This document shows, piece by piece, positions 4,319 through 63,205 of a stretch of 64,000 nucleotides of DNA. Source of the stretch: an uncultured bacterium (GTDB lineage Bacteria; Babelota; Babeliae; Babelales; Babelaceae); NCBI GenBank assembly GCA_963848965.1, contig CAWKFG010000004.1, positions 448,001 through 512,000 of the forward strand, read 5' to 3'. Position 1 is the stretch's first letter. Every line of letters begins with the position of its first letter. Made by a program: the position numbers and the translations under genes. The notes below the pieces were generated by a model. The model made no database searches. It worked only from the letters and a program-made list of their open reading frames with translations, and was not told where the DNA came from.

Positions 4319-5305
4319 TTACTCTTTTGCGCCATATTTTTTAAGTAACTCTACTATATCTGAATGACCTTTTTCTGTAGCAAGCATTAAAGCAGTTTCG
4401 CCAAACCTATTTCGTACATTAACTTCAGCACCTTTAGCTAAGAGCATTTGAACTATATCTTTATGGCCACCTCGTGTAGCATGCATTAAAACAGTACTTG
4501 TATACAGATCTTTAGCATTAACATCAGCACCAGCCTTAATCAGAAGTTCTACTACCTCTTTATGACCATTTCTTGCAGCGTCCATTAAAGCGGTAAATCC
4601 CACAATATTATCTCGAGCGTTAATATCAGCACCAGCTTGTATAAGCATTTCTACTATTTCTTTATAGCCTTTCACTGCGGGCCTCTTTAAAGCACTATAA
4701 TTATCTTTAGTTTTAACGCCAATGTTAGCATCAGCCCCTTTCTCTAGAAGCAACGCTACAATTTCTCTATAGCCGTTTTGTGCAGCATAATACAAGGCAG
4801 TGCAGCCAAACATTTCCTCTTGAGTATCAATATCACTAATACCTTTACTTAAAATATCTCTTACTTTTTCAATATTTCCCTTTCCAGACGCTTCAATAAG
4901 CCTTAAAGCATTAGGATGTAGCTCTAGCAATTTTTGTGCACTTTGAACTCCACGATTTTCAAGGTCTTTTAGTATCCAATTGGGTTTATATTGTCGAGCA
5001 TACGCTTTTCGTTTTAACTCATTGAGAAGGAATCTCACAAGATCTACATTATCAAATAAGGCTTTATAGTTTTCATTCCTTGCCAATTCTTCTATTTTCT
5101 TAAGAGCTTCAGAAAATGTTTTTGATGACTCTAGAGTTTCTTTGATACTACACTCTAAAGCCTCTCTGATTTTATTATATACTACAAAATGGTTCAGCTC
5201 TTTCCTCAGCTCTTGCGGCAAGTATTCTAGATAACTCTTTTGCTTTTGCATCCCAAGACCAGACGTAAAAAATCCTAACAATAAGATAACTATTACCTTT
5301 TTCAT
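4319..5305 (-). CDS. Secreted ankyrin-repeat protein
   Basis: Signal peptide MKKVIVILLL..GMQ; about 6 TALxxAA..GH ankyrin repeats. Confidence 0.9.
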   Translation of the reverse strand: MKKVIVILLLGFFTSGLGMQKQKSYLEYLPQELRKELNHFVVYNKIREALECSIKETLESSKTFSEALKKIEELARNENYKALFDNVDLVRFLLNELKRKAYARQYKPNWILKDLENRGVQSAQKLLELHPNALRLIEASGKGNIEKVRDILSKGISDIDTQEEMFGCTALYYAAQNGYREIVALLLEKGADANIGVKTKDNYSALKRPAVKGYKEIVEMLIQAGADINARDNIVGFTALMDAARNGHKEVVELLIKAGADVNAKDLYTSTVLMHATRGGHKDIVQMLLAKGAEVNVRNRFGETALMLATEKGHSDIVELLKKYGAKE

Positions 5306-5537
5306 GCTTAATTTTCTTTCCAATATTTTTACTGTTATGATTTTATTATAGTTCATAAAGGCACAAGATTCAACTAGCAATTAACTTCTAATGTTAAAAA
5401 GAATAAAACCTTATGCGTTCTAGTTGATTTTAAGAAACAAGCTAGATAAAGGATCTTTCATTAAGCATACGATACAAAATACTCAAATTAGTGATCTTTG
5501 ATGTAAGCCTATGCTAGAAATGTTTTTCTATTCAAGG

Positions 5538-5620
5538 TTCTAAAGAATATTGGTGTCCCCTGCTATACATGTTTCTGAACCAAAAGCTTGAATTTGAGAC
5601 CTGTTTAGATGATATCAAAC
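5538..5620 (+). repeat. Island boundary repeat, copy 3
   Basis: ttctaaagaatattggtgtcccctgctatacatgtttctgaacc..ttgaatttga..gatatcaaac. Confidence 0.85.
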
Positions 5621-5663
5621 AGTTTTATCTAGCCTTCAACATTTAGTAAAGTAATTTTTAATA

Positions 5664-6239
5664 TCAAGATCTAGCAAAAGCTAGTAACTTTGAATAATCA
5701 CCTTTGTCTGCATATTGTAATGCTTCAATATATAGTTTCCTAACAGGAGACGAGTTATATAAACTTTGATTTAAACCCCAACTAAAGCGATCATAACCTT
5801 GTTGTGTTATGAGCACATCAGCCATTAATCGAGCATGCCTTCCATTACCGTTAGGAAAGGGATGAATCCATACCAATTTATAATGAAGTCTGATTGCTAT
5901 CTCTTCTTTAGAGAAGGACTCATGTAGCAATTGGTAACTAACGTCATCACACAATTTTCTAACTTCCACAGGAATCAAATACCAACTAATACCAAGGTTT
6001 TTCTCAGTCTTACGAAACTTGCCTGCCCACTTCCATGTTTGATTAAACATATGCTTATGCAGCTGCTGTATAAATTCAACAGATAAAATACCATGTTGTT
6101 TAAATGCCCATTGTTGAGCCTTGAGAATATTTTTTTCTTCCCAAGCATTCAACTCTTCCTGAGTAGTAATATGTACAGGTAGTAAATCAGCTAACTCGCC
6201 AGGATCAATTGGTGTCGCACCCTCAGGATAATTAAACAT
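5664..6239 (-). CDS. Mobile mystery protein B (Fic domain)
   Basis: GATPID, HPFPNGNGRHAR Fic motif, WKWAGKFR. Confidence 0.9.
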   Translation of the reverse strand: MFNYPEGATPIDPGELADLLPVHITTQEELNAWEEKNILKAQQWAFKQHGILSVEFIQQLHKHMFNQTWKWAGKFRKTEKNLGISWYLIPVEVRKLCDDVSYQLLHESFSKEEIAIRLHYKLVWIHPFPNGNGRHARLMADVLITQQGYDRFSWGLNQSLYNSSPVRKLYIEALQYADKGDYSKLLAFARS

Positions 6240-6705
6240 GACCTTTATCCCATAAGTTTCTTGGGTTACCTTGTAACAGCTCTTCAACTAAAGCATCTTC
6301 CTGTTGCTTTAATTGCTTTGGATTTAAACTTTGCTGTTCCAATCCCATTGAATGATTTATTAATTTTATCTGTTTTTGCGCTACAGTTCTAGCTTGATCT
6401 TCAAGTATCTGATCGAGTGGCTTTAAAGGCACAAGGCAATAAACCAGCTTACAGTTCATAGCAGCTGCAGCCTGTTCAAGAGTCTTTAAGTTAATAGTTC
6501 CTTTTTGTTCACTCTGTTCCATAGCAATAATGTTAGACTGGCTACATCCAACCTTTTGAGATAAGGCGTAACTTGAAAGTCCTAATGATTCACGTATAGC
6601 CCGTATCCATCCCTTTTTAGGAGGTGGCTTTTTAGTGAGTTCTAAAAACTTACTTGTAGTCTCTTGAAGTTGCTCTCGCATTAACTTTCTAAAGATATTT
6701 GTCAT
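6232..6705 (-). CDS. Mobile mystery protein A (XRE HTH)
   Basis: P.KGWIRAIRESLG, HTH, HSMGLEQQ, PRNLW; overlaps the Fic gene. Confidence 0.9.
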   Translation of the reverse strand: MTNIFRKLMREQLQETTSKFLELTKKPPPKKGWIRAIRESLGLSSYALSQKVGCSQSNIIAMEQSEQKGTINLKTLEQAAAAMNCKLVYCLVPLKPLDQILEDQARTVAQKQIKLINHSMGLEQQSLNPKQLKQQEDALVEELLQGNPRNLWDKGHV

Positions 6706-6961
6706 ACATAATAACCTATAATTTATCAAATCATCTAAAATTAATCAATTATAGCTTATCAAAATTGGATAAAAAAATCAATTAAAATTGATTAAAATTT
6801 CGTCGAAACTATACTAAGGATACGTAGTAAAGCACTATATTCTTGTAAGAGTGACAAATTTACTTAGAGATTAACTTGAAAGTACTTAGTTGTAGATATA
6901 GCACGATATGTCAAACTAAGTTAAACTATTATTGTATAATAATTCTTCGTTTTAATGTGAA

Positions 6962-7816: not shown

Positions 7817-7878
7817 TTAGGGACTTTTATACATTCCAATAACTAATATAATTATACAATCGCGATTCTAAACGAAGC

Positions 7879-7955
7879 TGGTGTGCCCGGTAGGATTCGA
7901 ACCTACGACCTACGGATTAGAAATCCGTTGCTCTATCCAGCTGAGCTACGGGCAC
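7879..7955 (-). tRNA. tRNA-Arg(TCT)
   Basis: Reverse complement folds as a cloverleaf; anticodon stem ACGGA/TCCGT with loop TTTCTAA; GGTTCGAATCC T-arm; encoded CCA. Confidence 0.97.
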
Positions 7956-22485: not shown

Positions 22486-24093
22486 ATGAATTGTAAAATA
22501 GCTATTTTACTTCTTTGGTTTTGTTTTTCGCTCTCTGCTATGAAGCAGAGTATTTTTCACCTTACAGCTCTATCACAAAAGTTTATAGAGCGTGCACACT
22601 ATGGTAAACGGGAAAAAGTTTATACAATGCTTTCTGAAAATTCTGCTATTGATGATGCAGCAAAAGAGATAGTTTTTACTATAGCAGCTGCACATGGATG
22701 GGTAGACATCGTAGAACTTCTTATAAACAAGGGAACGAATATTCATACAGACCGTGATGAAGCATTCAAGAATGCTGCTCGTAATGGGCATAGTAGCATT
22801 ATGCAAATGCTTATTAAGCAGGGTATTACTCACGAACATGCTGCTTATCATCATGGCCTTATAGCTGCAGCAGCAGGAACTGGCAATCTAGAAGTTATAG
22901 ATATTCTTTTAGAATATGGGGCAGATCCACAATGGGAATATGAGGCTGCAATAAAGAATGCCGTTCATAATAACCATAGAGAAGTAGTCTCTAAGTTATT
23001 GAAAGCTGGTAGTTCTGTAGATGCAAAAAATGGAGATGGTGAAACACTGTTGATGATTGCAGCGCAAAAAGGCTATTTAGAGATGGCTCAGCTTCTTATA
23101 AGCAATAAGGCAGACTGCTCTCTAGCTTCACCTCGAGGTGATACAGCTCTTATTTATGCATGTAGGCATGGTCATACTGCAGTTGCTCAGTTGCTTATAG
23201 AAACAGGAAGTGCTTTCCATCGACATAAGGCTCTTGTAGCAGCAGCTTCTTGTAGTCATAAAGCACTAGTAAAATTGCTTTTAAATAGGGATGCTTCGCT
23301 TCAAGCATATGAACATGAGGCTTTAAAAGCTGCAATTCTTTATGGTACAAAAGATTTTATACGTTCCTTTATATCTCGAGTAGACTTTGTATTGAACAAA
23401 GATGAGTTATTTAAGAACAATAAGCAAGTAATCTTTCAAGTGCTTTTAAAACTTATTGAAGCTGGTATACACCTTACATTACAGGACTATACTTATGCTT
23501 TAACGCTTGCTCGAGAGTCTCATGCGCAAGGTATGATCTCTTTCTTGGAGTTTTGTATACAGCCAACAATACAAGCATACTGTGATGCAGGATATGCAAA
23601 GAAAATACCTCTTGCGCAGCTCTATGCAGATAAAGCTCTGCAAAAATATGTTCTTAATCCTTCTCATTACTTGCAGGAATATAAAATCACATACCTTGAT
23701 CGAGGGTATTATGCTCGTTCATGTGTGTATGAGCGTAGTTGGGCGGAGAGCTATGTTCCTTATTGGTATCAGTACAATTCATATAATCACCTTACTTGTA
23801 GTCATCAAACGCCTTTAGTGTGGGCATGTATATTTGGTCATCAGGAGACGGTTACGTCTCTTTTATCATATAACTTACCTTTGTTCTTTATCAATGCTCG
23901 TGATAAGAGTGGGTATACTGCGCTCGATTACGCTGCACGGTATAATTTTGAATCGCTTGTTCTTCTTCTTTTAAAAAATAGGGCTATGCCAACGTTACGA
24001 GCAGTTAAGCAAGCAGTAAAAAAAAGAAATTACTTTATAGTTGTTGAGCTTCTTTTAGCATTAAAACAGATTCCTCTTTCAATACTTGAATAA
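22486..24093 (+). CDS. Secreted ankyrin-repeat protein
   Basis: Signal peptide ..SAMKQ; multiple ankyrin repeats. Confidence 0.88.
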   Translation: MNCKIAILLLWFCFSLSAMKQSIFHLTALSQKFIERAHYGKREKVYTMLSENSAIDDAAKEIVFTIAAAHGWVDIVELLINKGTNIHTDRDEAFKNAARNGHSSIMQMLIKQGITHEHAAYHHGLIAAAAGTGNLEVIDILLEYGADPQWEYEAAIKNAVHNNHREVVSKLLKAGSSVDAKNGDGETLLMIAAQKGYLEMAQLLISNKADCSLASPRGDTALIYACRHGHTAVAQLLIETGSAFHRHKALVAAASCSHKALVKLLLNRDASLQAYEHEALKAAILYGTKDFIRSFISRVDFVLNKDELFKNNKQVIFQVLLKLIEAGIHLTLQDYTYALTLARESHAQGMISFLEFCIQPTIQAYCDAGYAKKIPLAQLYADKALQKYVLNPSHYLQEYKITYLDRGYYARSCVYERSWAESYVPYWYQYNSYNHLTCSHQTPLVWACIFGHQETVTSLLSYNLPLFFINARDKSGYTALDYAARYNFESLVLLLLKNRAMPTLRAVKQAVKKRNYFIVVELLLALKQIPLSILE

Positions 24094-28329: not shown

Positions 28330-29217
28330 ATGTTTGGGTTTATTAAGAAAGCATTAAGTACTATCTATCAACAAGTTACGAGTAAACTTACTACTCTCTT
28401 TACGCGTCAGCATATTGATGAAGATACACTCAAAGAGCTTGAACAGATCCTCATTAGTGCAGATACTGGTATCCATACAACTCGTACTATAATAGCAAAC
28501 CTCAAAGAGCAACTGTACCGCGGTTCTTTACAGAAAGGTTCAGACCTTCATACAGCTCTCAAGCAACAACTCAAATCATTGCTCACTACTCATCCATACG
28601 ACTCGCAAGCGGACATCTATCTACTCATCGGAATTAACGGTAGTGGCAAAACAACCTTTGCAGGTAAATTAGGCTTCTGGCTACAGCAGCAAAATAAAAA
28701 GGTCCTCTTTGTTGCAGCAGATACATTTCGTGCTGCAGCTACTGAGCAGCTGAGTACTTGGGGCCAGCGTCTCACTATTCCCGTTATTACCGGTAAAGAA
28801 AACCAAGATCCTGCTTCTGTCGTCTACTCGGGCTGCGAACACTTTAAACAAGGCGCCTACGACAATCTTATTATTGACACTGCCGGCCGATTACAAACAA
28901 AAGTTAATCTTATGAAAGAGCTTGAAAAAGTTAAACGTACTATCGATAAGCAGCTGAGTACCCACAAAATCTCTACTCTGCTTATCATCGACTCTATGCT
29001 CGGGCAAAATTCATTTGAGCAAGCAAAAATATTCCACGAAAGTACGCACGTTGACGGTATAGTACTCACCAAGATGGACGGAACAGGCAAAGGCGGCATC
29101 GTATTCTCTATAGTCCAAGAACTCAAGATACCTATCGCCTTTATCTCCTTTGGCGAACAACCAGAACAACTCGCTCTCTTCGATGCAGACACCTACGTTG
29201 ATCAACTACTCAGCTAG
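28330..29217 (+). CDS. ftsY: SRP receptor FtsY
   Basis: GINGSGKTT, DTFRAAA, DTAGRLQ, TKMDGTGKGG. Confidence 0.96.
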   Translation: MFGFIKKALSTIYQQVTSKLTTLFTRQHIDEDTLKELEQILISADTGIHTTRTIIANLKEQLYRGSLQKGSDLHTALKQQLKSLLTTHPYDSQADIYLLIGINGSGKTTFAGKLGFWLQQQNKKVLFVAADTFRAAATEQLSTWGQRLTIPVITGKENQDPASVVYSGCEHFKQGAYDNLIIDTAGRLQTKVNLMKELEKVKRTIDKQLSTHKISTLLIIDSMLGQNSFEQAKIFHESTHVDGIVLTKMDGTGKGGIVFSIVQELKIPIAFISFGEQPEQLALFDADTYVDQLLS

Positions 29218-32128: not shown

Positions 32129-32155
32129 TAATAGGCGCCTCCGGGCGCCTATTTT
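32129..32155. terminator. Bidirectional terminator
   Basis: aataggcgcc-tccg-ggcgcctatt between convergent genes. Confidence 0.75.
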
Positions 32156-32957: not shown

Positions 32958-32975
32958 GATAACCTCCATGAAATC

Positions 32976-39472: not shown

Positions 39473-40447
39473 ATGGTAACAAAATTATTTGCTCTTATTT
39501 TACCTTTATCATGTTTTATGCCTCTTCTTAGTATGGAAGAGCCTGTAAGCACCTGTGCAGAAGTACTTATCAAAGCAGTACGTGAAGGAAATACTGCTCT
39601 TGTACAATCTCTTATTGAACAAGGAGTAGATGTTAATAACTGCAACAAATACAGTTCAACTGCTCTTCATGAAGCAGCACATAAAACGAGGCCCCACCCT
39701 AAAATGTCACTCAACCATTCTCACACTGAGGTTGAAGAGCAAACAAAGCATTGCAACTTTATCAATGAACAAAAGATTGTTATAGCTCAGATCCTTATTG
39801 CATCAGGAGCCGATATTAATAAACAAAATACTTCAAGAAGCACTCCTCTTATTAATGCTTCTTCTTCTGGCAATGAGCCTGTAGCTCACTTATTACTACA
39901 ACAGCCTGGTATATTAGTTAACGTACAAGGCGCTAATGGCGACACCGCTTTTGAATGGGCACTTATTAATCACCACTATAGTATTGTTGATTTGATTATG
40001 GATCATCCATCATTTGTTCCTCATCCTGCAAGCCCTTACCATAGATCCACTGTCTTACATCTAGCTGCAGCACAAGGTGAACACAAGATAGTAGAAAAGC
40101 TTTTAAAAATAGCACAAGACAATCTTACTACAAAGGATCATGAAGGGAATACACCCCTGCATCTTGCAGCCATCACTGGTAAAGATAAAGTTGTAGCAGC
40201 ACTTATAAAAGACGGTAGTATAGATATGCAAAATAATAAAGGGAATACTCCACTACATGAGGCTATTTTAGGAAACCATATAGCAATTGTTACCATGCTT
40301 GTTAATGCAAGAGCTCGAACTAACCTTAAAAATAATAATAATCTTACGGCAGTAGAACTCGCTACACAGCAAGTAGGCTATTTTGATTGGGCAATCAACC
40401 AAACTCGTCGTGCAATCTGGCTTTTAGTATCTTCAAAAAAGCCTTAA
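39473..40447 (+). CDS. Secreted ankyrin-repeat protein
   Basis: Signal peptide ..LSMEE; GNTPLH repeats. Confidence 0.9.
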   Translation: MVTKLFALILPLSCFMPLLSMEEPVSTCAEVLIKAVREGNTALVQSLIEQGVDVNNCNKYSSTALHEAAHKTRPHPKMSLNHSHTEVEEQTKHCNFINEQKIVIAQILIASGADINKQNTSRSTPLINASSSGNEPVAHLLLQQPGILVNVQGANGDTAFEWALINHHYSIVDLIMDHPSFVPHPASPYHRSTVLHLAAAQGEHKIVEKLLKIAQDNLTTKDHEGNTPLHLAAITGKDKVVAALIKDGSIDMQNNKGNTPLHEAILGNHIAIVTMLVNARARTNLKNNNNLTAVELATQQVGYFDWAINQTRRAIWLLVSSKKP

Positions 40448-40513: not shown

Positions 40514-42655
40514 ATGAAAACAATACATATAGTATATACCTTATTAACACTTTTGCTTGTTTGTCCTCTACAGGCAATGGAGCATACCTCATTAAAGCAC
40601 CTTAATACTCTTCTTATTCAAGCATGTATAAGGGGATTTAAAGAAGAGGCAAACAGTCTTATCAACTTGGGAGCTGATATAAATCAGTGCGACGCTCAAC
40701 GTGGGTTTCCCCTTATGTGCGCAGCACATTTTGGACACACCGAACTTGTAAAATTTCTTTTGTTAAAAAAAGTAGATGTCAATACTACATTTAAAGGTCT
40801 TAATGCACTTACTTACGCAATAGTTGGCACCACCTATCTTCAAAAAGATAAACATATACCTTCTGATAGAGCAGAAGAAATAATGCTAGAAATAGTGGAA
40901 ATGCTTATTAATGCAGGTATTAATGTAAGACTTTATAATGAAGATAATACAACAGCTCTTCATTATGCAACACACTATGGAACTGCACGTATTGCACAAG
41001 TACTTATAAATGCTGGCGCAGAAGTTAACATACAAACAAAGCAACTAAAACTTACTCCCTTAATGGAAGCAGTAATATCAGGACATGTAGATACGGTTAA
41101 AGTACTACTCAAGGCAGGAGCATCCCTTGAGGCAGTAACCTTATCTGGTAAAACGGCCTTAGATATAGCTCATTTTGAAAAGCATAAGGATATCGCTGAT
41201 CTTTTAAGACAGGTAAGTCAACAAGGAATGGGGCATATACTTGGAGAAAGAGAAGTACAACATCTTGAGAAACAGTGCATGACATGCAAAAAAGAACCGT
41301 GTTCTTTACTATGTAGTATTTGTAAAAATGCCTATTACTGTTGCAGGAGTTGCCAAGTTAAACATTGGGCTATTCATAAAGCTATCTGTAAAAGACAGGA
41401 TTCTGTACATACTTCATCTTGTATGCCTCACTCTAGCGATTCTACAAAAAATATCACAGAGTATAAACAACAGTTTTTTCAAGCAGCACTCGACGGCAAT
41501 GAACAAGCTATAAAGACGCTCTTTACCAAAGTAAATATCAATGCACAGGATAAAAAAGGGCGTACTGCTCTTTATTTAGCGGTAAAAAATAATCATTATT
41601 CATTAGTTACATTTCTTTTTGAAGCAGGAGCATCTATAGAAATGGGTACCAACAAATGTAATGTGACACCCCTTATGAAAGCATTAAAAGAAGGCTATGA
41701 AAAAATTGCGCTTTTTTTACTAGAGAAAGGAGCCCGGATAAACGCCACAGATATTTATGGTACAACTATGCTTCATTGTGCTGCAAAGGGTGGCTGCCAA
41801 GACGTTATCTCACTACTTATAAAAATGGGTCTCACGAGCAATGCCACTACCATAGAAGGTATCTCAGCCTTAGCGTGTGCTACAAGAAGTAATTCTTTGG
41901 GTATTATAAGTAGGCTTGTGGCAGCAGGCGCTCATCTTACTATTGAGCAAATAGTAGAACATGCTTTTACTAGAAATGAACAGAAGCTAAGCAATAAGGT
42001 AGAAAAGATATTTGGTGATACAACAACTGGTATACAGCTTAAAGAAACTATCCAGAAAGATTTTTCTCAAGCAAAAAATCATGTGTTTAACACTATGCAT
42101 AAAGATGCTTTAGAATTTATAAAGATGTTAAGCAATTATCATATTCAAACCTATCTTAAAGATCCGCATGCTCACTACAATTCTCTTGCTTCTACTGTAT
42201 ACAAGGAGTGCTTTAACCAAACAGTACTAATATGGGCATGTGCTCTAGGCCATAGTGAAGTTGTAGAAACTGTTTTAGGAAGAGCGCCCTCTTATGAATT
42301 TGTTCATGCACAAGATACTTATGGCAGAACTGCTCTTATATACGCGATTATGTGTGGTTACGATACTATTGTTGATGCATTATTAAGTATTGTACATTAC
42401 TTACCAGAACATCTTAATATTCAAGACAAAAAAGGTAATACTGCACTTATGTATGCAACTGCACAAGGAAACTTTAGTTTATCACGAAGACTTATACGAA
42501 CGGGAGCGCTCTTTGCTCCCGGTGATATTGAACGTGTCATACAACTTGCCACAAAACCAGAAGTACAAAAGATGCTTAATTCTTTTCTTGTACTTTCTCA
42601 GTTGCACATGCTTTATAATACGAAAAATACGCACAGACAACCCTTTTCTCTATAA
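40514..42655 (+). CDS. Secreted ankyrin-repeat protein with MYND zinc finger
   Basis: Ankyrin repeats flanking CxxC..CxxC....YCxxxCQ..HW..H...C. Confidence 0.9.
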   Translation: MKTIHIVYTLLTLLLVCPLQAMEHTSLKHLNTLLIQACIRGFKEEANSLINLGADINQCDAQRGFPLMCAAHFGHTELVKFLLLKKVDVNTTFKGLNALTYAIVGTTYLQKDKHIPSDRAEEIMLEIVEMLINAGINVRLYNEDNTTALHYATHYGTARIAQVLINAGAEVNIQTKQLKLTPLMEAVISGHVDTVKVLLKAGASLEAVTLSGKTALDIAHFEKHKDIADLLRQVSQQGMGHILGEREVQHLEKQCMTCKKEPCSLLCSICKNAYYCCRSCQVKHWAIHKAICKRQDSVHTSSCMPHSSDSTKNITEYKQQFFQAALDGNEQAIKTLFTKVNINAQDKKGRTALYLAVKNNHYSLVTFLFEAGASIEMGTNKCNVTPLMKALKEGYEKIALFLLEKGARINATDIYGTTMLHCAAKGGCQDVISLLIKMGLTSNATTIEGISALACATRSNSLGIISRLVAAGAHLTIEQIVEHAFTRNEQKLSNKVEKIFGDTTTGIQLKETIQKDFSQAKNHVFNTMHKDALEFIKMLSNYHIQTYLKDPHAHYNSLASTVYKECFNQTVLIWACALGHSEVVETVLGRAPSYEFVHAQDTYGRTALIYAIMCGYDTIVDALLSIVHYLPEHLNIQDKKGNTALMYATAQGNFSLSRRLIRTGALFAPGDIERVIQLATKPEVQKMLNSFLVLSQLHMLYNTKNTHRQPFSL

Positions 42656-42676: not shown

Positions 42677-43069
42677 ATGAGTATAAAAAAAATGTTATCG
42701 AGTATCCTTATAGCTTGTGCCATATCTACTATACAGGCCATGGAAAAAGATGAAAAACAATCGTTAAAAAAAGAAAAGCAGGCTGAACGCCCTGCGCGAC
42801 AAGATTTTGCAGATATTATCTGGAAGCTCTTACAAGATTCAGTAATAAATTCTTTAAGCATTCTTTACTCAAAAGCAAAACAACAGCACACATCAAGCGC
42901 TTTAGCTTTATATGAATTTTTTAAAGCAGTTCAAGGAAAACATAAAGTAAGTAATGCAAGTATAGGGATTTTAAGAGACTATGGCCTAAGCGATGGTTAT
43001 GGTACTATTCATCCAGATATAGCAGAAATAGCTCGTAACGTTCGGTTTGCCGATGATCAAAAAGAGTAG
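42677..43069 (+). CDS. Small secreted hypothetical protein
   Basis: Signal peptide ..IQAMEK. Confidence 0.65.
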   Translation: MSIKKMLSSILIACAISTIQAMEKDEKQSLKKEKQAERPARQDFADIIWKLLQDSVINSLSILYSKAKQQHTSSALALYEFFKAVQGKHKVSNASIGILRDYGLSDGYGTIHPDIAEIARNVRFADDQKE

Positions 43070-45091: not shown

Positions 45092-45862
45092 ATGAATACA
45101 GAAAAAAAGCTTGATCTTATTATTGCAACAATAAAAGGAGATGTAAAAGCTGTTAAAGAGCTTATTGCACAAACAGTTCCTGTAGATGCTCATGACACTG
45201 ATGGCAATACTGCACTTACGCATGCAGCACGTGAAAACAATAAGCCTATAGCTCGTTTGCTTTTACAAGCTGGAGCTGACCCTAATAGTAAAAATAGTTA
45301 TGGACATACCCCTTTTGCTTTTGCACTTCACCACAAGGATCGCACACTTTTTAAAGAAATGGAAAAAGCAGGTGGAGATCTTACAGTATGCCCTTATATA
45401 CTCATTTGTGCCATAGAAGGAAATCATAGTAGGCTCATTACCTCTTTGATAAAAGAGCCGCATACTCTTTTGCAACGTGATCAAGATGGAGCTACCCCAT
45501 TGTTTGTTGCATGCGATCTTGGCGATAGCACAATCGTTAAAAAGTTATTACGAGCAAAAGCTCCTCTTAATGATCAAGATAAAGAGGGCAATACACCTCT
45601 TATAATAGCTATAATTCGCTATAAACTAGAGGTTATTAAGCTTCTTCTTTCTGCAGGCGCTAATCCTCACATAGCTAATAAAGAGGGAATGACTGCGCTT
45701 GATATAGCTGCAACCGAAAGTAAAGAGATGGTAGAACTGCTTTTACAACATTGCTCATATACCACTATTGAAAAAAAGAGAGCGCTTACACACGCTCTTA
45801 AAACTAACTATAAAGAAGCACGAAAAGCTAGCAAACTTCTAGAATCAGTAATTGGACAGTAG
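45092..45862 (+). CDS. Ankyrin-repeat protein (no signal peptide)
   Basis: GNTAL/GHTP/GATPL/GNTPL repeats. Confidence 0.9.
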   Translation: MNTEKKLDLIIATIKGDVKAVKELIAQTVPVDAHDTDGNTALTHAARENNKPIARLLLQAGADPNSKNSYGHTPFAFALHHKDRTLFKEMEKAGGDLTVCPYILICAIEGNHSRLITSLIKEPHTLLQRDQDGATPLFVACDLGDSTIVKKLLRAKAPLNDQDKEGNTPLIIAIIRYKLEVIKLLLSAGANPHIANKEGMTALDIAATESKEMVELLLQHCSYTTIEKKRALTHALKTNYKEARKASKLLESVIGQ

Positions 45863-47729: not shown

Positions 47730-48557
47730 ATGCATTATGCTTTTTGCATACAGGCATCTTTATGCCTTTGCATAACAACCTTTGCACTAGAAGGTTCTGA
47801 ACTTCAACATACAGAAAGACCAAAAACAATGAACAATCAAAAAGAACAACTATCACAGTGGCTCACACATATTCAAAAAACAACTTTCTATCACGGATCA
47901 TTTACAGCTCAAGATACATCTGGCACTACTATTACCTTAGAATGGGAACGAATCGACGGACAGTCTGCAAAACTTACGCAAAAGGTTAAAAGTTTTGCAG
48001 AGATTTTTGCTCACACGTATACAAAGCAGGAGATAGAATTTGCCCGAAAGCATCCAGAAAGAGTCGTACATGAGCACTTTCTAAAAGTGCTCGAACCTCT
48101 TTTTAAAAATGGTAACGATAAAGTAGATTGGAAACAAGCAGAAGAACAACTCTTAGCGCTCTTCAGACAAGTTTTTACAACTACAGATTTTGCCCAGTTT
48201 TCAGGTTCTGACGATATTCATCTATTTGTTATAGCAAAAGAAAAAGAGATTCCTCTTGGAATAATTCAATTTCTTATTACACCTGAATATGCTTATGGTA
48301 CTATCAAAGCTGGCTACTTTGGTATAGAAGCAACTGCACACAATCGAGAGTTAGAAAAAGAGCTTATGGGCTCAATCTTTAAAATACTTCCCGAAACTCA
48401 GCGTATTTTCCTACATACTCGTTCAACGCATAAAAAAGCTCTTAGTATGTATCAATCTTGGGGCTTTAAAGAAGTTCAAGGTCCGTTACCTTATTGGACT
48501 GATTTAGAATACTCTACAGCACATTCTTCTCAATTACAAAAACAACTTGGAGAATAA
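47730..48557 (+). CDS. GNAT-family acetyltransferase-like protein
   Basis: C-terminal I.L.TR.T...A..MY.SWGF; the acetyl-CoA motif looks degenerate (HNRELE). Confidence 0.6.
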   Translation: MHYAFCIQASLCLCITTFALEGSELQHTERPKTMNNQKEQLSQWLTHIQKTTFYHGSFTAQDTSGTTITLEWERIDGQSAKLTQKVKSFAEIFAHTYTKQEIEFARKHPERVVHEHFLKVLEPLFKNGNDKVDWKQAEEQLLALFRQVFTTTDFAQFSGSDDIHLFVIAKEKEIPLGIIQFLITPEYAYGTIKAGYFGIEATAHNRELEKELMGSIFKILPETQRIFLHTRSTHKKALSMYQSWGFKEVQGPLPYWTDLEYSTAHSSQLQKQLGE

Positions 48558-48645: not shown

Positions 48646-49242
48646 ATGCACCACCCTCTTCTACATGAACAAGATCAACAGATTTTGTATGATGCTTTAC
48701 ATTACATGAAAGTTTCGGAACTGAAAAGTTGTTGCCAGAGCCTTAGATTGCCTGATGTAGGAAAAAAAGGCGAACTAATACAAAGAATTATGAACTTTAT
48801 TAAGACCGGTACAATAAAAGAACAACAACAAATACCACCTTCATCACATGCAAAGCACCATCTCCCTCAGCCTATTTCCAAGCATGCACTCATGCTCTAT
48901 GTAAGCTACAAAAACGACACAGAAACTCGTATATTTTTCAAATCGCTTATTGGGCCTCATTTTCATTTTACCGCCTTTGGTATTGACTGGCTTAACGAAA
49001 GGTGGCAACAAGGCAATCCTCCTACATACCAAGAATTTGCTGATTTCTGGATCACAGAGACTGAAAGACGTAAGCATACGAAAGCAGAACCAAAAAAAGA
49101 ATGGGCTTATATCAACTTTCTCCAACAAAACAATGAACTCTCTGCATCAGAAGCAATTCTTGCATGGAAAAAGTTGCGTGCTCAGAAAGCACTTCTTGCA
49201 AGAACTATTATTACTACTCTTACAGCACAAATAGTTACCTAA
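48646..49242 (+). CDS. SAP-like + DUF6434 domain protein
   Basis: ELK..C..L.L...GKK.ELI.RI; R.FF...IG..F.F; PTY. Confidence 0.65.
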   Translation: MHHPLLHEQDQQILYDALHYMKVSELKSCCQSLRLPDVGKKGELIQRIMNFIKTGTIKEQQQIPPSSHAKHHLPQPISKHALMLYVSYKNDTETRIFFKSLIGPHFHFTAFGIDWLNERWQQGNPPTYQEFADFWITETERRKHTKAEPKKEWAYINFLQQNNELSASEAILAWKKLRAQKALLARTIITTLTAQIVT

Positions 49243-49410: not shown

Positions 49411-50685
49411 ATGTTGTATATATTTTTTATTTTTTCTCTTTTTTATTGCTCTTTCCAATTGCAGTGTATGGAGCAGAGCACTAATACACTATCTTCAGAA
49501 TCTTTATCAAAGAAGCAAATGGACACCTTACTTATAGAAGCAGCACAGCTTAAAGATCTTACTGAAATTGAAGACTTTCTTCTAACAAAACTAAAAGGCA
49601 ACAAAACTCTCTATGAGCAAAGAGGCTATACGGCTTTAATGTGGGCTACATGGAATGGCTATACCGAGTTAGTAAAACTACTATTAAGTAAAGGTGATGA
49701 TCCTAATAAAAAAAGCAAAGAAGGCGCTTGGACTCCTTTATTATATGCAACACAAAAAGGCCATAAAGATATCATAGAGTTACTTTTAGCTCATGGAGCC
49801 GATGTTAATACTCAAGACAAATCTGGCAAAGCTGCTTTAATGCTTGTTGCTTATAAAGGTTATAAAGATATTGTAGAGCTACTTTTAGCCTATGGAGCTG
49901 ATGTTAATACCAAAGATAAGAACTGGGAAACAGCCTTAATGTATGCTTCACTATTCAACCATAAAGAAGTTGTGGAGCTCCTCATTAATCATAATGCTCC
50001 CATAAATTCTCTCGACTGTTATGGTGGTACTGCTTTAAGTAAAGCAGCCCAAAACAAACATAAAGAAATAGCTGCATTTCTTATAAGCAAAGGAGCAGAT
50101 GCTAATGCTAACGTACATGATAACGTCGCACATGGCTTTACCGCTCTAGATTATGCTCGCATAAAGGAATGCAAGGAACTTATTCATCTTTTAGAGTTAT
50201 GCAATGATGCTGAAGTACAAGCATATCTTAAAGATCCTCAAGGATATGCTGAAAAAAAACAGTATGTCACTGATACCGTAACAACACTTATGCTCGCATG
50301 TGCCTTTGGTCATACTAACATTATCTCCTACTACAAAAATCACCCTTCCGAGTATATTAATGCACAAGATAGTAATGGCTACACAGCCTTTGACTATGCT
50401 TTACACTTTAACAAAAGAAGCGCTGCTACACTTATTCATACTTTTGGAAATAAAATTGATAAAGTAAAAAATAACAAACAAGAACTTCTTAAAGATGCAA
50501 TAGAACAAAAAGATGTAGGATTAATTACAGCTCTTTTAAATGCGGGAGCAGCACCTCTAGGAATAGCTCAAACCCAAGAAGCTGGATTTTTAAATATTCT
50601 ACCAAAAGATATTTTTGCTTATCTTCTTCTCTTTTTAAACAGCACAACAAAACCAAAAGATAAACCTCAGAACTCTCCTGAATAA
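49411..50685 (+). CDS. Secreted ankyrin-repeat protein
   Basis: Signal peptide ..QCMEQ; multiple ankyrin repeats. Confidence 0.9.
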   Translation: MLYIFFIFSLFYCSFQLQCMEQSTNTLSSESLSKKQMDTLLIEAAQLKDLTEIEDFLLTKLKGNKTLYEQRGYTALMWATWNGYTELVKLLLSKGDDPNKKSKEGAWTPLLYATQKGHKDIIELLLAHGADVNTQDKSGKAALMLVAYKGYKDIVELLLAYGADVNTKDKNWETALMYASLFNHKEVVELLINHNAPINSLDCYGGTALSKAAQNKHKEIAAFLISKGADANANVHDNVAHGFTALDYARIKECKELIHLLELCNDAEVQAYLKDPQGYAEKKQYVTDTVTTLMLACAFGHTNIISYYKNHPSEYINAQDSNGYTAFDYALHFNKRSAATLIHTFGNKIDKVKNNKQELLKDAIEQKDVGLITALLNAGAAPLGIAQTQEAGFLNILPKDIFAYLLLFLNSTTKPKDKPQNSPE

Positions 50686-51375: not shown

Positions 51376-52275
51376 ATGAAAAACGTTTTATATTTTATGA
51401 GCATAATATTTTTATCTTATGCACCTATTTGTCATCCAATGGAAAGAGACATAACTACTAACCAAGCCCTAGCTGAAGAAGTTATTAAGGCTGCACATAC
51501 AGGCAATGTTCCGAGGCTCAGAAAGTTAAGCAGACAGACTAATATTGCTCATGTTGTTGACGAAACTTTTGGAGCAAGTCCACTATTCTGGGCAATTGAT
51601 GCTAACTCAGAAGAAACAGTTAAATTTCTATTAGATGAAACAACTATAGATGTTAATAAACGAAATAAATTTCTTACTACTCCATTGCTATTTGCTGTTG
51701 AAAAGCCCGGTAAACTAGCTATTGTAAAGCTCCTTTTAGCAAAAAATGGTATAGATCTTGAAGCAAAAGGTAGTGGTAATGTAACTGCATTGCAACGAGC
51801 AGATGCAGAGTATAAAGAAATATTAAAAGCTGCTGGTTCAGATATTAGCTGGAATCCCTATGAATTAGCACAAGCTATTAACTTAGGTCAAATAGAAAAG
51901 CTCAGACAATTTATTAAAGAGCATCGCTCAAAATTCACTAGCACTCATTTTATAGAAGCCATTTTAGTTGCTAAACGACATCCTGAATCGCTTGAAATTC
52001 TCTTACAAGAGTTTTTTGGATCTACACTAGTACGCGTTATGTGGTCTGCAGAAGTAGCAACACACGAAAATTTTGATCAATTATTTGATAAATGCACTGA
52101 AATTGGAGAGCTTGTATTGTTAGATCATAACTTAAATTTTATCGCTATGTGGTTGAGACCAGAAAAGATGAATGGTATTGATCAGGAAACTTATAAAAAA
52201 AATGTATTGACTGGTAGGGTACTACAATCTCCAACAAATCCTAACATCCTCATACTAATAACAAAAAAGATTTGA
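51376..52275 (+). CDS. Secreted ankyrin-repeat protein
   Basis: Signal peptide ..HPMER; 3-4 ankyrin repeats. Confidence 0.82.
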   Translation: MKNVLYFMSIIFLSYAPICHPMERDITTNQALAEEVIKAAHTGNVPRLRKLSRQTNIAHVVDETFGASPLFWAIDANSEETVKFLLDETTIDVNKRNKFLTTPLLFAVEKPGKLAIVKLLLAKNGIDLEAKGSGNVTALQRADAEYKEILKAAGSDISWNPYELAQAINLGQIEKLRQFIKEHRSKFTSTHFIEAILVAKRHPESLEILLQEFFGSTLVRVMWSAEVATHENFDQLFDKCTEIGELVLLDHNLNFIAMWLRPEKMNGIDQETYKKNVLTGRVLQSPTNPNILILITKKI

Positions 52276-52334: not shown

Positions 52335-54443
52335 TTACGTGTTAAATAATCGAGGTAATTTTGCATCAGCCTTAGGATGAGTAGCATCATTAACTAAAGC
52401 ACCATAAGTTTTAGCAGAAGCAAAGAGAAGATTCATCATCATCTGTTTGTTTTGCAGACGCGATGCAAGCTCTATACATTTTGTTTGTACTTTAGCTCCT
52501 CTGCTTAAAAGAGCATTAACGAGCTTTATATCTCCTGCTTTTACCGCATAATATAACGCAGTATTATCATACTTATCTCTTTTATCAACCTCCACCACAA
52601 AAGATTCTAATCCATCCTTGCCTTGAGTTTTTAGAGATAGTAACTCTTGTATAAGAGCATAATTCTCACAAATGATAGCATACATAAGCGGTGTTCTTTT
52701 GTGTTTATCTCTTGTATTAAACAATGTTCTGAAATGAGGATACTGTTCACCCGCTTCTTTTATTAGTTTTACTATATCAGCATGATTAAAAATACAAGCT
52801 AATTGTACAGGGTTGCATTCTATCACATTTACCTCAGTAAAAAAATGAGCGGCTATAAATGCTTGTGTAAAAGCTTTAGGATCTTTCAGATAGTGCCTTA
52901 CCTGCTCTTGTGCACAGAGGTTCATAATATCTATCAAGTCTTTATTACCAGTCATCTGTGCAAGCTCAATAACATTTTTCCTCACTATACCAGTTGACCA
53001 GACCTTGTTAGCATCAGCATAAGTATGAACCTCAACATGTGCCTCTGGTTTCTGGATATCTGCACCAGCTGCTAAGAGTATAAGTGCTGTTTTAAGCTTG
53101 TTCTTTTTGACTGCGTATGCAAGCGCTTTATCCAAATCTTTACTACCAGCTTTTATAAGCAAATGAACCATTTCACTGTGTTCGTTTCTTGCAGCTGCGC
53201 CTAACGCGCTCACCTTTCTTTCATCTGTTTCATCTATACCAGTACCTCGCTCTATAAGCGTTTTAACGGCTTCAACATGTCTTTGTTCTGCTGCTAGTAT
53301 TAAAGGTGTAGCATGCCAATGAGTAACAACATTAATATCAGCTCCTGCATCAAGCAATGTTTTAATGAGCTCTGTATCTCCTAAATATGCTGCACCAAGC
53401 AACTTTTGATTATCACTGCTAGTAAGTTGCATTAACCTTTGTACTATATTTTTATGATTGCGCATTATAGCAGTCATCATAGGATTTTCGTCGTAATCTC
53501 TATCTAATACGCTAGATACGTCTGATTCATGCTCAACAAGAGCATTAAGTATCTCAAGATTACCGCGTGCAGCTGCATGATGCAAAGCAGTTACCCGACG
53601 AATGTTTTCATCTGGCGCTAAAACATCCGCCCCTGCATCCAGAAACTTTCTTACTGTTTCAGCATTTGCCTTCTGATTCTTGTTAATGTAACCTGCTAGT
53701 ATATCTGAATCTTGACTCGCATCTGCACCATTATCTAAAAGAAGATTGATCAATTCTTCATCATTATCTAATTCAAATATTGTCAAATCTAATGGTGTTC
53801 TATTATCATTATCGCTTGCATTCACATCTGCATTAGATGCAATAAGCATTTTAGCTATAGCTTTGTTCTTATTAATAATAGAGCATATTAAAGGGGTCTC
53901 TGAGCAACTATTTGAGTGTCGCCTATAAGTAAAAGTAAAATTAGGAGTTGCTCCACTACGCAAAAGAAGCTCTACTATCTCTGCATAATTCTGCATTACA
54001 GCTAAAGACAAAGCTCTCTGCCCATTTTTATTTTCAATATTAACATTTATTCCGCTTGCAATAAGTGCTTTAATAACTGGCATATCTTTTGCAAAAACTG
54101 CATGCATAAGAGCAGTTGATCCATCATGCCCTTGGGTTAAAAACCCTGCTTGTACAAGCATCTTTATAAATTCTGGTCGCCCAGAATCTAGAGCACTTTT
54201 ACATGCAATATAGTCAAGAACACTAACAGGATAGCGCTTAAGGCACTCTTTTACGAGTTCTATATTACCATCACGAACAGCCTGTATAATATGTGCCATA
54301 GGCTGTGTAAGTTGAGCCATTGCATTATTAAGAGCAACTTTTTTACTTGGTTCTTGCCTCTCATCTTGATTACTCCTTTTCATACAGAAAGAGTTACTCA
54401 TTATGAGCGATAAAACTATAACACTACTTAGTATATAATGCAT
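52335..54443 (-). CDS. Secreted long ankyrin-repeat protein
   Basis: Signal peptide ..FCMKR; many ankyrin repeats. Confidence 0.9.
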   Translation of the reverse strand: MHYILSSVIVLSLIMSNSFCMKRSNQDERQEPSKKVALNNAMAQLTQPMAHIIQAVRDGNIELVKECLKRYPVSVLDYIACKSALDSGRPEFIKMLVQAGFLTQGHDGSTALMHAVFAKDMPVIKALIASGINVNIENKNGQRALSLAVMQNYAEIVELLLRSGATPNFTFTYRRHSNSCSETPLICSIINKNKAIAKMLIASNADVNASDNDNRTPLDLTIFELDNDEELINLLLDNGADASQDSDILAGYINKNQKANAETVRKFLDAGADVLAPDENIRRVTALHHAAARGNLEILNALVEHESDVSSVLDRDYDENPMMTAIMRNHKNIVQRLMQLTSSDNQKLLGAAYLGDTELIKTLLDAGADINVVTHWHATPLILAAEQRHVEAVKTLIERGTGIDETDERKVSALGAAARNEHSEMVHLLIKAGSKDLDKALAYAVKKNKLKTALILLAAGADIQKPEAHVEVHTYADANKVWSTGIVRKNVIELAQMTGNKDLIDIMNLCAQEQVRHYLKDPKAFTQAFIAAHFFTEVNVIECNPVQLACIFNHADIVKLIKEAGEQYPHFRTLFNTRDKHKRTPLMYAIICENYALIQELLSLKTQGKDGLESFVVEVDKRDKYDNTALYYAVKAGDIKLVNALLSRGAKVQTKCIELASRLQNKQMMMNLLFASAKTYGALVNDATHPKADAKLPRLFNT

Positions 54444-61164: not shown

Positions 61165-61378
61165 TATCCCTCTCACAATTCTTACAAGATTCATTTTAAA
61201 CTATCTTGAGCATTTTTTAAAAATGTTCGAAAAAATTTTATAGTATAAAATGCATTTAATTATAAAAATATTTACTGCCTGTCAATAAATTTGCTATGCT
61301 TCACTATAAATAACTCGCAATACAAGAGAGTACTTATAAAGAGCTATAAAAACTAATTATTAATAAAAAGGAGTTTCT

Positions 61379-61939
61379 ATGAACCATATATATAAAATGA
61401 TGTTTGCTTTATTCTCTATAGCAGGCATTAACCATCTAGCCTTTGGGTATGAATATACCTTTTCTAACCATATTCCGGACAAAACCATTGAAGTTCAAAT
61501 TAAACTTTTAGGTGTAAATGAACCTTGGTATAAGCAAACAATTAAACCTAATACAACTGCAACCTTCTTATGGAAAGCATTCAGCAAAGATAAAGATCCA
61601 CTTGAATACGCAGAATGGAGAAAATCAGGACTTTGTTTGCAAAGTATTCAATATAGAACAGCAGGAACAGCTTGGAGAGAAACTGACATAACTTTTGCAG
61701 ATTCAGATGCATACAAGAGAATAGTAAATGCTGCTGAAAATCTAGGAGAAGGAACTGCTAGTGTAGCTCAATTTGCAGCAGCTGTTTCAGGAGTTCCTAC
61801 TGAAAAAGTAAGTGGTGGCTCTTTAGCAAAAGGTATCGCTGAGCTTATTGGAACAAGTGCTTGCCGCGATAGACACTTTGATATTGCTCCAGATAAAACT
61901 GATCCTAAACAAATCGCATTCTATTCAATTGCAAAATAA
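61379..61939 (+). CDS. Secreted hypothetical protein
   Basis: AAGGAG RBS; signal peptide; downstream hairpin terminator near 61945-61966. Confidence 0.65.
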   Translation: MNHIYKMMFALFSIAGINHLAFGYEYTFSNHIPDKTIEVQIKLLGVNEPWYKQTIKPNTTATFLWKAFSKDKDPLEYAEWRKSGLCLQSIQYRTAGTAWRETDITFADSDAYKRIVNAAENLGEGTASVAQFAAAVSGVPTEKVSGGSLAKGIAELIGTSACRDRHFDIAPDKTDPKQIAFYSIAK

Positions 61940-62113
61940 CGTATAGCCCAGCAAAGCTGGGCTTTTCTACAAATAATTCTTTTCACTTATCTTTTCTGAC
62001 AATCACATTTTTCAAAAAATTCAAAATCATATTGCTTGCAAATTGTATTTAATATGGTAAAATGCTAATTAGCCAATAAAAACAAAAATTAAAATATTTA
62101 CCAGGGGTTAATT

Positions 62114-63205
62114 ATGTATAAAAAATTATCATTCCTCTTTCTTACCGCTTATATGGCAGTAAACAGTTTACAGGCAATGGAACCGGCAAATCCAGAACCA
62201 GCTAAAGACATGTATATACCTCAAACTGCATGTCCACATCCAGTATACCTTATCAACGATTCTGATGAAGATTTGGACATAACAATTATCATAGATTCTA
62301 ACACTGTAACAGAACAGAATGCTTATATTTTAAAAGCTATTTTGGCAGGAATTACAGGATTTCTTCCGTGTCATGACTTGGAAGAAAGAACAGATCAAGC
62401 TATTGTAACTAAGTTTAAAGGCGCAAAGTTTGAATTTACTATCAAACCACATGACAGCCTTTTACTTCCAGGTCTTGCTACAGGACAAAAAATTGCACTT
62501 TGGAAAAAGAGATGGGGTATAAATACGCTTGCGTATCAACTTCCCTTACAGGAAATCGAAGAGCTTGTAAAATCCAGCCATGGAGATCGAAAAAAAATTG
62601 TACAAGTCTATGTCAAACCATGCCTTGGTCTTAATTATGGTTTTAATTTTCAGCAATGTTTAACAGAGCAAGAAGATAATTATAATCTAAAGCAATTGAA
62701 TCAAAGAGCTATACCTCTTGATCCTGCAGCTATAGCAGATGATATACCTGTATGTCTTGATCCAGTTAGGCTTTTTAACAAGAGTGAGGAAGATTTAAAT
62801 ATAAGAATTATAACCAATCCTAACAACACAATAACCAAAAATGGTAATCTTCTTCAGTTCATCTTGGTTTCACTTACAGCAGGCTTAAACCTTGATGATA
62901 TGAATGGCATTATGGCACAGAATATACAAGACAAATTTAGAAAAGCTGAGTTCGATTTCTCTATAAAGCCAAGCGATAATCTTTTAATTCCTGGTATTGC
63001 TGCAAAGCAGGAAATCCTTGTATGGAAAAAAAGAGGCGGAACAGACGTCAAGTCTTATTCTGTTCCTCTTAACAAAATAGAGCAGTCACTTAGTGTTATA
63101 AATCGTAAAGACATGAAGAATACAGTACATGTATTTATCACCCCAAGCATTTATCTTTGGGGCTTCTATTTTGATGTGTCTACAGTACAAGAAAAAACTG
63201 CATAA
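62114..63205 (+). CDS. Secreted protein with two tandem homologous domains
   Basis: Signal peptide ..QAMEP; C..PV.L.N.S.EDL.I.II and KF..A.F.F.IKP.D.LL.PG.A..Q.I..WKKR.G each occur twice. Confidence 0.75.
   Translation: MYKKLSFLFLTAYMAVNSLQAMEPANPEPAKDMYIPQTACPHPVYLINDSDEDLDITIIIDSNTVTEQNAYILKAILAGITGFLPCHDLEERTDQAIVTKFKGAKFEFTIKPHDSLLLPGLATGQKIALWKKRWGINTLAYQLPLQEIEELVKSSHGDRKKIVQVYVKPCLGLNYGFNFQQCLTEQEDNYNLKQLNQRAIPLDPAAIADDIPVCLDPVRLFNKSEEDLNIRIITNPNNTITKNGNLLQFILVSLTAGLNLDDMNGIMAQNIQDKFRKAEFDFSIKPSDNLLIPGIAAKQEILVWKKRGGTDVKSYSVPLNKIEQSLSVINRKDMKNTVHVFITPSIYLWGFYFDVSTVQEKTA

Follow-up and report, generated by a model that had tools for sequence, protein, structure and literature searches.

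A methionine directly after the predicted signal peptide cleavage site is characteristic of eukaryote-like exported proteins in a Babelaceae genome

Introduction

How do Dependentiae separate host-directed effectors from the proteins of their own envelope? The question is raised by a stretch of 64,000 nucleotides (the window; C4:448001-512000) from the genome of an uncultured bacterium of the Babelaceae, referred to here as G000, whose assembly comprises 1.73 Mb in five contigs with 37% GC and is 88.7% complete. Its ATP synthase alpha subunit is nearest to those of Dependentiae and Babeliaceae metagenome-assembled genomes, at 68-76% identity, while those of other phyla reach 59% at most. Twelve proteins encoded in the window begin with a signal peptide that runs directly into a methionine, and such a Met junction could mark the proteins that are sent to the host. 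To our knowledge, no specialised injection system is known for Dependentiae.

According to the main texts of the genome papers, signal peptides are present on 44% of the coding sequences (CDS) and 78% of the ankyrins of Chromulinavorax destructans (PMC6561590) and on 79 of 126 ankyrins of Babela massiliensis (PMC4378268), and ankyrins with signal peptides are presumed to reach the cytoplasm of the host by secretion (PMC4378268, PMC6561590). The share in G000 is similarly large, with 43% of the open reading frames (ORFs) compared to 44% of CDS. The word "methionine" does not occur in the main texts of these two papers, supplementary tables excepted, and a Met at the cut site is not mentioned there; the available text of the TM6 comparative paper contains neither "signal peptide" nor "N-terminal" (PMC4776705). 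Titles and abstracts of the Dependentiae literature yielded nothing that points to a Met junction rule. New here are the class split of the junction, the evidence on translation starts, the independence of the protein clusters that carry it and its uneven distribution.

Occurrence of the Met junction in the genome and its relatives

The Met junction is a genome-wide and lineage-wide rule that occurs far beyond chance. Throughout the genome 1537 non-overlapping ORFs of at least 70 codons were called, and signal peptides were flagged by a heuristic of our own, based on hydropathy, charge and the residues at -3 and -1, in place of SignalP. The same heuristic recovers known signal peptides of E. 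coli (DegP, BtuF, fimbrial subunits). In G000 it flagged 657 of the 1537 ORFs (43%) as signal-peptide-like, of which 520 lack a further hydrophobic segment and were treated as soluble. Met is the last uncharged residue before the first charged one in 131 of these 520 proteins, compared to 0-24 of 520 at neighbouring offsets and a background Met frequency of 1.8%.

A strict junction rule, by which Met stands at position 16 or later, after a small residue or Pro and before a non-hydrophobic residue, applies to 171 of the 520 proteins, that is to 11% of ORFs and a third of the signal-peptide-like proteins. With other residues in the place of Met the rule yields far smaller numbers per 520 (His 12, Trp 5, Cys 22, Tyr 42, Phe 44, Asn 17, Gln 31). 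At mock starts it is satisfied by only 4 of 5179 internal Met codons and 6 of 730 wrong-frame starts, compared to 171 of 1537 real gene starts. Since three of the twelve window proteins are lost to the filters, two to the filter for further hydrophobic segments and one to the hydrophobicity threshold, the genome counts are conservative. The Met enrichment at +1 that the original prediction had drawn from twelve cases thus reaches far beyond them in a genome-wide test, made with the heuristic and not with SignalP. The Met-type genes are mildly clustered, with 33 adjacent pairs compared to 18.8 expected.

The Met junction recurs, unevenly, in several families of the order. In other genomes of the order the strict rule is satisfied by 20 of 118 signal-peptide-like ORFs in G002, which belongs to the same family, by 4/47 in G010, 13/46 in G022, 11/54 in G055, 9/133 in G056, 2/27 in G016, 1/27 in G014 and 0/20 in G015; some of these stretches were picked for ankyrin density, and G014 is without any ankyrin match. 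A further family (f11) gave 4 of 19 in 67 kb of pieces, and contigs of named Dependentiae gave 11 of 47. The same heuristic found no case in controls from other phyla (0/15) and E. coli (0/11; together 0/26). For the window ankyrin protein encoded at 49411-50685, 65 of the 120 best homologues appear to bear a signal peptide and only 6 are Met-type by the rule, all of them proteins of G000 itself or from metagenomes; Brachyspira and Planctomycetes ankyrins among the homologues have other junctions. In the first 400 kb of G056 (C1:1-400000, loci L114-L133) 30 of 133 signal-peptide-like ORFs have Gln at the junction by the same rule, and an ankyrin family with S-MYAAQE is present there. The junction habit of G056 may thus differ from that of G000.

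Leader anatomy and translation start

Judged by their sequence, the leaders are genuine, translated Sec-type signal peptides with a predicted signal peptidase I cut just before Met. If the cut is set before Met in the 131 proteins, position -1 is occupied by Gly (42), Ala (39), Ser (26), Cys (10) or Thr (9), together in 126 of 131, and the -3/-1 rule is satisfied in 121 of 131, with leaders mostly of 17-22 residues. A weight matrix made from positions -8 to -1 alone recovers the Met site in 110 of 130 proteins and places Met at +1 in 47 of 83 proteins with eukaryote-like domains and in 0 of 37 enzymes. Its +1 prediction is noisy in proteins without the junction, and junction classes were used instead for the comparison of N-degrons below. 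Met is followed usually by Glu, next by Gln, Lys or Asp, and then by an acidic linker rich in Pro and polar residues. Glu is the second residue in 98 of 131 cases, compared to only 6% of ordinary proteins, in which Lys, Ile, Asn and Ser lead.

A Shine-Dalgarno-like motif precedes 103 of 131 signal peptide starts and 266 of 444 ordinary starts, compared to 7 of 131 junction Mets and 1185 of 6959 internal Mets. The corresponding G-rich peak at -11 to -7 is seen upstream of ordinary starts and of the signal peptide starts of the Met set. Together with Glu at +2, this pattern argues against a mis-called start as well as against an efficient internal start. The internal translation start that the original prediction had offered as an alternative is therefore disfavoured, while its assumption of cleavage before Met agrees with the 121 of 131 proteins that follow the -3/-1 rule. 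A lipoprotein signal for signal peptidase II was rejected, because +1 is Met and not the lipobox Cys, and Cys is found at -1 in 10 of 131. A type IV prepilin or pseudopilin leader was rejected as well, since here Met comes after the hydrophobic segment, and what follows Met is polar and acidic.

Class of the proteins with a Met junction

The Met junction is class-specific and is carried by proteins with eukaryote-type interaction domains and by part of the orphans. All 229 signal-peptide-like soluble ORFs of contig C1, the first 110 kb of contig C4 and the window, together 47% of the genome, were scanned against Pfam. The strict rule applies to 60 of 83 proteins with eukaryote-like domains, but only to 2 of 37 enzymes and envelope proteins, and to 32 of 107 family-less proteins (Fisher p 2e-12, a value overstated because paralogues are not independent). 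Six further domain proteins are Met-type by eye, giving 60-66 of 83, and both Met-positive enzyme or envelope cases are doubtful, as their Met lies within the hydrophobic core. The split supports the distinction between effector-like and periplasmic proteins on which the original prediction had relied.

Domain types under the rule are ankyrin, WD40, C2H2 zinc finger, LRR, TPR, RING/IBR, MYND, UCH and DnaJ. The 73 scanned proteins with Met plus a charged residue comprise 33 ankyrin, 4 WD40, 4 C2H2 zinc-finger, 2 LRR, 1 TPR, 1 DnaJ, 1 DUF1653 and 27 family-less proteins, and no enzyme or envelope protein was found among them. The 113 proteins without a junction Met include GH3, HtrA-like, S41, C11 and M20 peptidase matches, a solute-binding protein, an amidase, superoxide dismutase (SOD), adenylate kinase and Ham1, and also a Macro domain protein, three dual-specificity phosphatases, 6 WD40 and 8 ankyrin proteins. 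The junctions of exported hydrolases, of binding proteins and of other enzymes are ordinary and often expose Asp, Glu, Lys or Arg; the predicted cut lies directly before one of these residues in 13 of 37 enzymes, compared to 7 of 83 domain proteins (p 9e-4). Signal peptide hydrophobicity and n-region charge show no difference between Met-type and other exported proteins, whereas the 20 residues past Met are less hydrophobic and contain more Asp and Glu (17.5% vs 13.6%).

Cytosol-type enzymes with acquired hydrophobic leaders (adenylate kinase, Ham1, SOD and others) are mostly without a junction Met, and a scar of the former start codon is therefore not automatic. Hydrophobic leaders were seen on adenylate kinase, Ham1, Fe/Mn SOD, glucose-6-phosphate dehydrogenase (G6PD) and thioredoxin reductase at the C1 loci L006:44-694, L027:12900-13571, L014:10000-10737, L030:1275-2756 and L026:5843-7336. 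At C1:233000-241000 (L013:2974-11737) a tandem array encodes signal peptide proteins composed of C2H2 zinc fingers (zf-H2C2_2, E to 1e-112) with the junction YS-MQE. Their sequences suggest DNA-binding proteins that are secreted and directed to the nucleus of the host.

The twelve proteins of the window

A comparison of the 59 window ORFs with Pfam revealed housekeeping genes interspersed with 8 ankyrin proteins, a SAP-domain protein, toxin-antitoxin genes and many family-less ORFs. The positions by which the original prediction had named the twelve proteins are gene ends or starts, and the Met codons were mapped separately:

4319-5305, minus strand: ankyrin protein; signal peptide MKKVIVILLLGFFTSGLG, start codon 5303-5305; junction Met codon 5249-5251 (LG-MQK), followed by the motif YLEYLPQEL.
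22486-24093, plus strand: ankyrin protein; 18-residue signal peptide; junction Met codon 22540-22542 (SA-MKQ); lost from the genome counts to the filter for further hydrophobic segments.
29816-32089, plus strand: orphan of 757 amino acids; 21-residue signal peptide; junction Met codon 29879-29881 (SA-MEP).
32154-32969, minus strand: orphan; signal peptide start 32967-32969; junction Met codon 32907-32909 (KA-MEQ).
33960-34670, plus strand: orphan; signal peptide MIRRFLFIYCILSLASFSSSNA; junction Met codon 34026-34028 (NA-MRL).
39473-40447, plus strand: ankyrin protein; 20-residue signal peptide; junction Met codon 39533-39535 (LS-MEE).
40514-42655, plus strand: ankyrin and zf-MYND protein; 21-residue signal peptide; junction Met codon 40577-40579 (QA-MEH); lost from the genome counts to the filter for further hydrophobic segments.
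42677-43069, plus strand: orphan of 130 amino acids; 21-residue signal peptide; junction Met codon 42740-42742 (QA-MEK).
49411-50685, plus strand: ankyrin protein; 19-residue signal peptide; junction Met codon 49468-49470 (QC-MEQ).
51376-52275, plus strand: ankyrin protein; 21-residue signal peptide; junction Met codon 51439-51441 (HP-MER), with Pro at -1, unusual for signal peptidase I.
52335-54443, minus strand: ankyrin protein; 20-residue signal peptide; junction Met codon 54381-54383 (FC-MKR).
62114-63205, plus strand: orphan of 363 amino acids; 21-residue signal peptide; junction Met codon 62177-62179 (QA-MEP); under the hydrophobicity threshold of the genome scan.

As originally described, all twelve N-termini consist of a segment of 18-22 residues with n-region, hydrophobic core and c-region, followed directly by ATG/Met. 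The n-regions are net positive and in every case precede a hydrophobic core of about 8-15 residues, located within roughly the first 25, and -1 and -3 are small or aliphatic in eleven proteins, the exception being HP-M with Pro at -1. Seven of the eight window ankyrin ORFs carry signal peptide and Met, while the eighth (45092-45862) has no signal peptide, so that every signal-bearing ankyrin is indeed included. The envelope-type ORFs named for comparison (12371, 14043 and the amidase) are without Met, as had been claimed. The SAP domain of the protein encoded at 48646-49242 (plus strand) is of eukaryote type, as is the zf-MYND domain of 40514-42655 (plus strand).

Constraint and inheritance

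Mature regions of the exported proteins fall into 305 BLAST clusters, 74 of which contain the Met type, including 55 of 263 singletons; in the big ankyrin cluster 71 of 103 proteins are Met-type. The median identity to the nearest paralogue is 38%. Descent from one expanded family was rejected because the Met type is spread across 74 unrelated clusters. A shuffled signal peptide cassette was likewise rejected, as only 38 pairs with similar 5' modules at the nucleotide level were found among the 520 proteins, 16 of them between different clusters. There is also no shared nucleotide motif at the junction: the codons at -1 and +2 are used as in the genome (GAA 64 : GAG 32 compared to 0.67 : 0.33), which places the constraint at the protein level.

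Among 23 junction columns compared over 485 homologous pairs, that of Met is conserved best, with 49% identity compared to 20-39% in its neighbours. The sole homologue of the orphan encoded at 29816-32089 (74% identity) retains A-ME, and the residues beyond diverge. An ankyrin family with the motif YLxLLPQ[DE]L (C1:547000-606000; in the window 4319-5305) has 11 members with a signal peptide, 10 of which are Met-type; the linker to the motif is variable, from 4 residues up. An F-box reading of this family was rejected, since PF00646 is unmatched in the whole genome at E <= 0.01 and in six N-terminal segments at E <= 1; the N-terminal segments gave only weak, sub-threshold UBM matches. A toggle between secreted and cytosolic paralogues was rejected too, because the start is aligned to Met in only 1 of 52 homologues without signal peptide. 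Met-type proteins have few orthologues, whereas in 60 of 75 reciprocal-best pairs neither partner is Met-type.

Export and processing machinery

A single LepB match (PF10502) is located at C1:323737-324447, which speaks against a dedicated second signal peptidase; one match was likewise found in each of the 21 genomes searched. Three adjacent secretin genes (C4:764526-774999; ORFs of 1142, 815 and 789 amino acids, each with a signal-peptide-like start) and two ATPases of type II secretion system (T2SS) type were identified, while SctV of the type III secretion system and VirB4 had no match in the 88.7% complete assembly. The outer-membrane export machinery found in G000 is thus of secretin/T2SS type only, which fits a two-step export route. 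T2SS genes and two copies of gspD are common to TM6 genomes according to the available text of the comparative study (PMC4776705). A secretin dedicated to Met-type proteins was rejected, as two to three matches are present in all five genomes checked irrespective of Met-type prevalence. An exported methionine aminopeptidase was rejected because both M24 matches lack a signal peptide. Six GNAT matches occur in the genome, three to four of them with a signal-peptide-like N-terminus. In the window, the ORF at 47730-48557 (plus strand) has a signal peptide without junction Met and a weak match to GNAT acetyltransferases (26.2 bits).

Possible roles of the junction methionine

The descriptive core, real signal peptides with a predicted cut before Met in a class-specific and lineage-enriched pattern, is well supported. 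To explain it we tentatively favour, at somewhat less than even probability for the mechanism as a whole, selection step included, that selection on the protein retains Met in the mature N-terminus of proteins that would act inside a protist host. Met would probably descend from the initiator of a protein that was formerly cytosolic or was acquired, and that gained its signal peptide later. The protein would then be exported by Sec, cut by the single LepB and released via a secretin/T2SS-type apparatus or vesicles, so that the exported form would begin with Met-Glu and run on into the acidic linker. This start may have been retained as the sole N-terminus that the N-terminal quality control of the host takes for an ordinary protein start, and Met would shield an otherwise charged, degron-type N-terminus. 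In the eukaryotic cytosol, Asp, Glu, Lys and Arg act as N-degrons when exposed at the N-terminus. The version of this reading that involves NatB is weakened by the fact that NatB acts mainly on nascent chains.

Several observations weigh against selection on the mature N-terminus. Of the 83 domain proteins 23 lack Met, notably a WD40 family with GG-D and SG-E junctions, and so do probable host-directed enzymes, namely the three dual-specificity phosphatases and the Macro domain protein. Only 5 of 13 reciprocal-best partners of Met-type G000 proteins satisfy the strict rule; several partners have a Met a few residues further on. The uneven spread among relatives (9/133 in G056, 1/27 in G014, 0/20 in G015) implies that Met is not indispensable for effector export or function. 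Moreover, Ala, Ser, Thr and Gly at +1 also avoid the classical N-degrons, and stability alone leaves the choice of Met unexplained. Finally, the signal peptides throughout are those of our own heuristic, and the cleavage sites are predicted.

A second-step sorting signal and a scar without present function are serious rivals, although we regard each of them as rather unlikely. If the Met-Glu start and the acidic, disordered linker were read in the periplasm, effectors could be routed on through a secretin/T2SS-type channel or vesicles, while Met-less proteins would stay in the envelope, much as lipoproteins are sorted by their +2 rules. Such sorting would agree with the class split (60/83 domain proteins compared to 2/37 enzymes and envelope proteins), with a linker that is more acidic (17.5% vs 13.6% Asp and Glu) and less hydrophobic next to leaders of unchanged hydrophobicity and charge, and with the secretin/T2SS-type parts, the sole outer-membrane route found and one whose genes, including two gspD copies, are common to TM6 genomes (PMC4776705). 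However, the two to three secretin matches do not track Met-type prevalence in the five genomes checked, a second LepB is missing in G000, and G056 is rich in signal peptide ankyrins that are largely without Met. We also know of no linear N-terminal signal for T2SS, which counts against sorting. The scar, in turn, would be the old initiator of proteins, many of eukaryotic type and probably acquired, that were given leaders by 5' extension or fusion, and it would persist in fast-duplicating families. The prevalence of the Met type varies between lineages, and the proteins that carry it are lineage-specific, evolve fast and have few orthologues (in 60 of 75 reciprocal-best pairs neither partner is Met-type). 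One paralogue without signal peptide begins exactly at Met, and G6PD is such an extension with the original Met retained. Against a scar, the paralogues are old (median identity 38%) and the Met type extends over 74 clusters, yet 60-66 of 83 domain proteins keep this rare residue. A Shine-Dalgarno remnant precedes only 7 of 131 Mets, Glu at +2 in 75% is unlike the start contexts of this genome, leader-gaining cytosol-type enzymes mostly lack the junction Met, and the start is aligned to Met in only 1 of 52 homologues without signal peptide.

Dual initiation and a gene-calling artefact are both unlikely. If the junction ATG were a second initiation site that yields a cytoplasmic isoform alongside the exported one, a conserved in-frame ATG exactly at the junction would be required, as is seen, and initiation independent of Shine-Dalgarno motifs does exist, since about 40% of ordinary genes also lack one. 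We nevertheless consider dual initiation quite improbable: the motif is found at 7 of 131 junction Mets, below the 1185 of 6959 for any internal Met, Glu is second in 98 of 131 compared to only 6% of ordinary proteins, and it is hard to see what eukaryote-type domains would do in the cytoplasm of the bacterium. Still harder to credit is that translation begins only at Met and that the "signal peptide" is an untranslated T-rich leader, open by chance. AT-rich upstream DNA does yield hydrophobic peptides on translation, but mock starts gave 4 of 5179 and 6 of 730 compared to the 171 of 1537 observed, the Shine-Dalgarno peak lies upstream of the leader ATG, the leaders have canonical n-h-c architecture and follow the -3/-1 rule, and the full-length form of the protein encoded at 49411-50685 is present in a public protein collection.

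Going beyond retention by selection, the Met-Glu start may be a functional address or disguise code unique to these protist parasites, by which the whole set of proteins bound from the periplasm for the cytosol and nucleus of the host (about 170-200 here) could be told from sequence alone, a proposal we consider possible but doubtful. If true, it would be either the signal for a second export step or a mimic of the eukaryotic protein start that evades N-terminal surveillance by the host and is possibly acetylated by an exported GNAT enzyme. A Sec-dependent effector code of this kind would be without counterpart in known secretion systems.

Comparison with known systems

With classical Sec export and signal peptidase I the Met-type proteins share the positive n-region, the hydrophobic core, small residues at -3 and -1, a length of 17-22 residues and a single LepB gene. 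They differ in having Met at +1, which is found here in a third of the substrates and in one functional class only. The closest parallel is the Q-rule of Bacteroidetes, likewise a rule that is peculiar to one lineage and concerns the new N-terminal residue left by signal peptidase I (PMC5837995, PMC10653852). There, according to the available text, Gln at +1 of signal peptidase I substrates is cyclised to pyroglutamate, in which the authors see protection of the N-terminus rather than sorting (PMC5837995). The Q-rule concerns Gln, covers most substrates whatever their destination and has a known modifying enzyme, a membrane-associated glutaminyl cyclase, whereas the rule in G000 concerns Met and is class-specific, and no modifying enzyme was identified for it in checks that covered M24 peptidases and GNAT acetyltransferases. 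G000 does not follow the Q-rule itself, as Gln satisfies the strict junction rule in 31 of 520 proteins compared to 171 of 520 for Met. The terms "methionine", "TM6" and "Dependentiae" do not occur in the available text of the Q-rule paper (PMC5837995).

Codes adjacent to a cleavage site are established for the +2 rules of lipoproteins, the lipoprotein export signal of Bacteroidetes and the Plasmodium PEXEL product xE/Q/D. As in these codes, in which residues just past the processing site decide on the later destination, an acidic or amide residue stands second, but neither lipidation nor an RxL motif is involved here, and a reading of Met-Glu by some machinery would be an analogy only.

A rule of one residue thus separates the eukaryote-like part of the secretome from its ordinary exported enzymes. 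It allows candidate effectors to be listed from sequence alone, including orphans (32 of 107 family-less proteins), and offers a direct experimental handle in the mutation of one residue. After the Q-rule of Bacteroidetes it is a second case in which a lineage adjusts the new N-terminal residue left by signal peptidase I. For annotation it matters that the choice of start codon at these genes determines whether a secreted or a non-secreted protein is predicted.

Neighbouring genes in the window

Beside the first Met-type ankyrin gene lie an AbiEii/AbiEi toxin-antitoxin pair (967-2636, minus strand), an IS110-family transposase (3162-4106, plus strand) and a pair of genes for a Fic and a helix-turn-helix protein (5664-6729, minus strand). 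The sole Rfam match in the window is one tRNA (7882-7955, minus strand), and a gene for an FtsY-type receptor of the signal recognition particle is found at 28330-29217.

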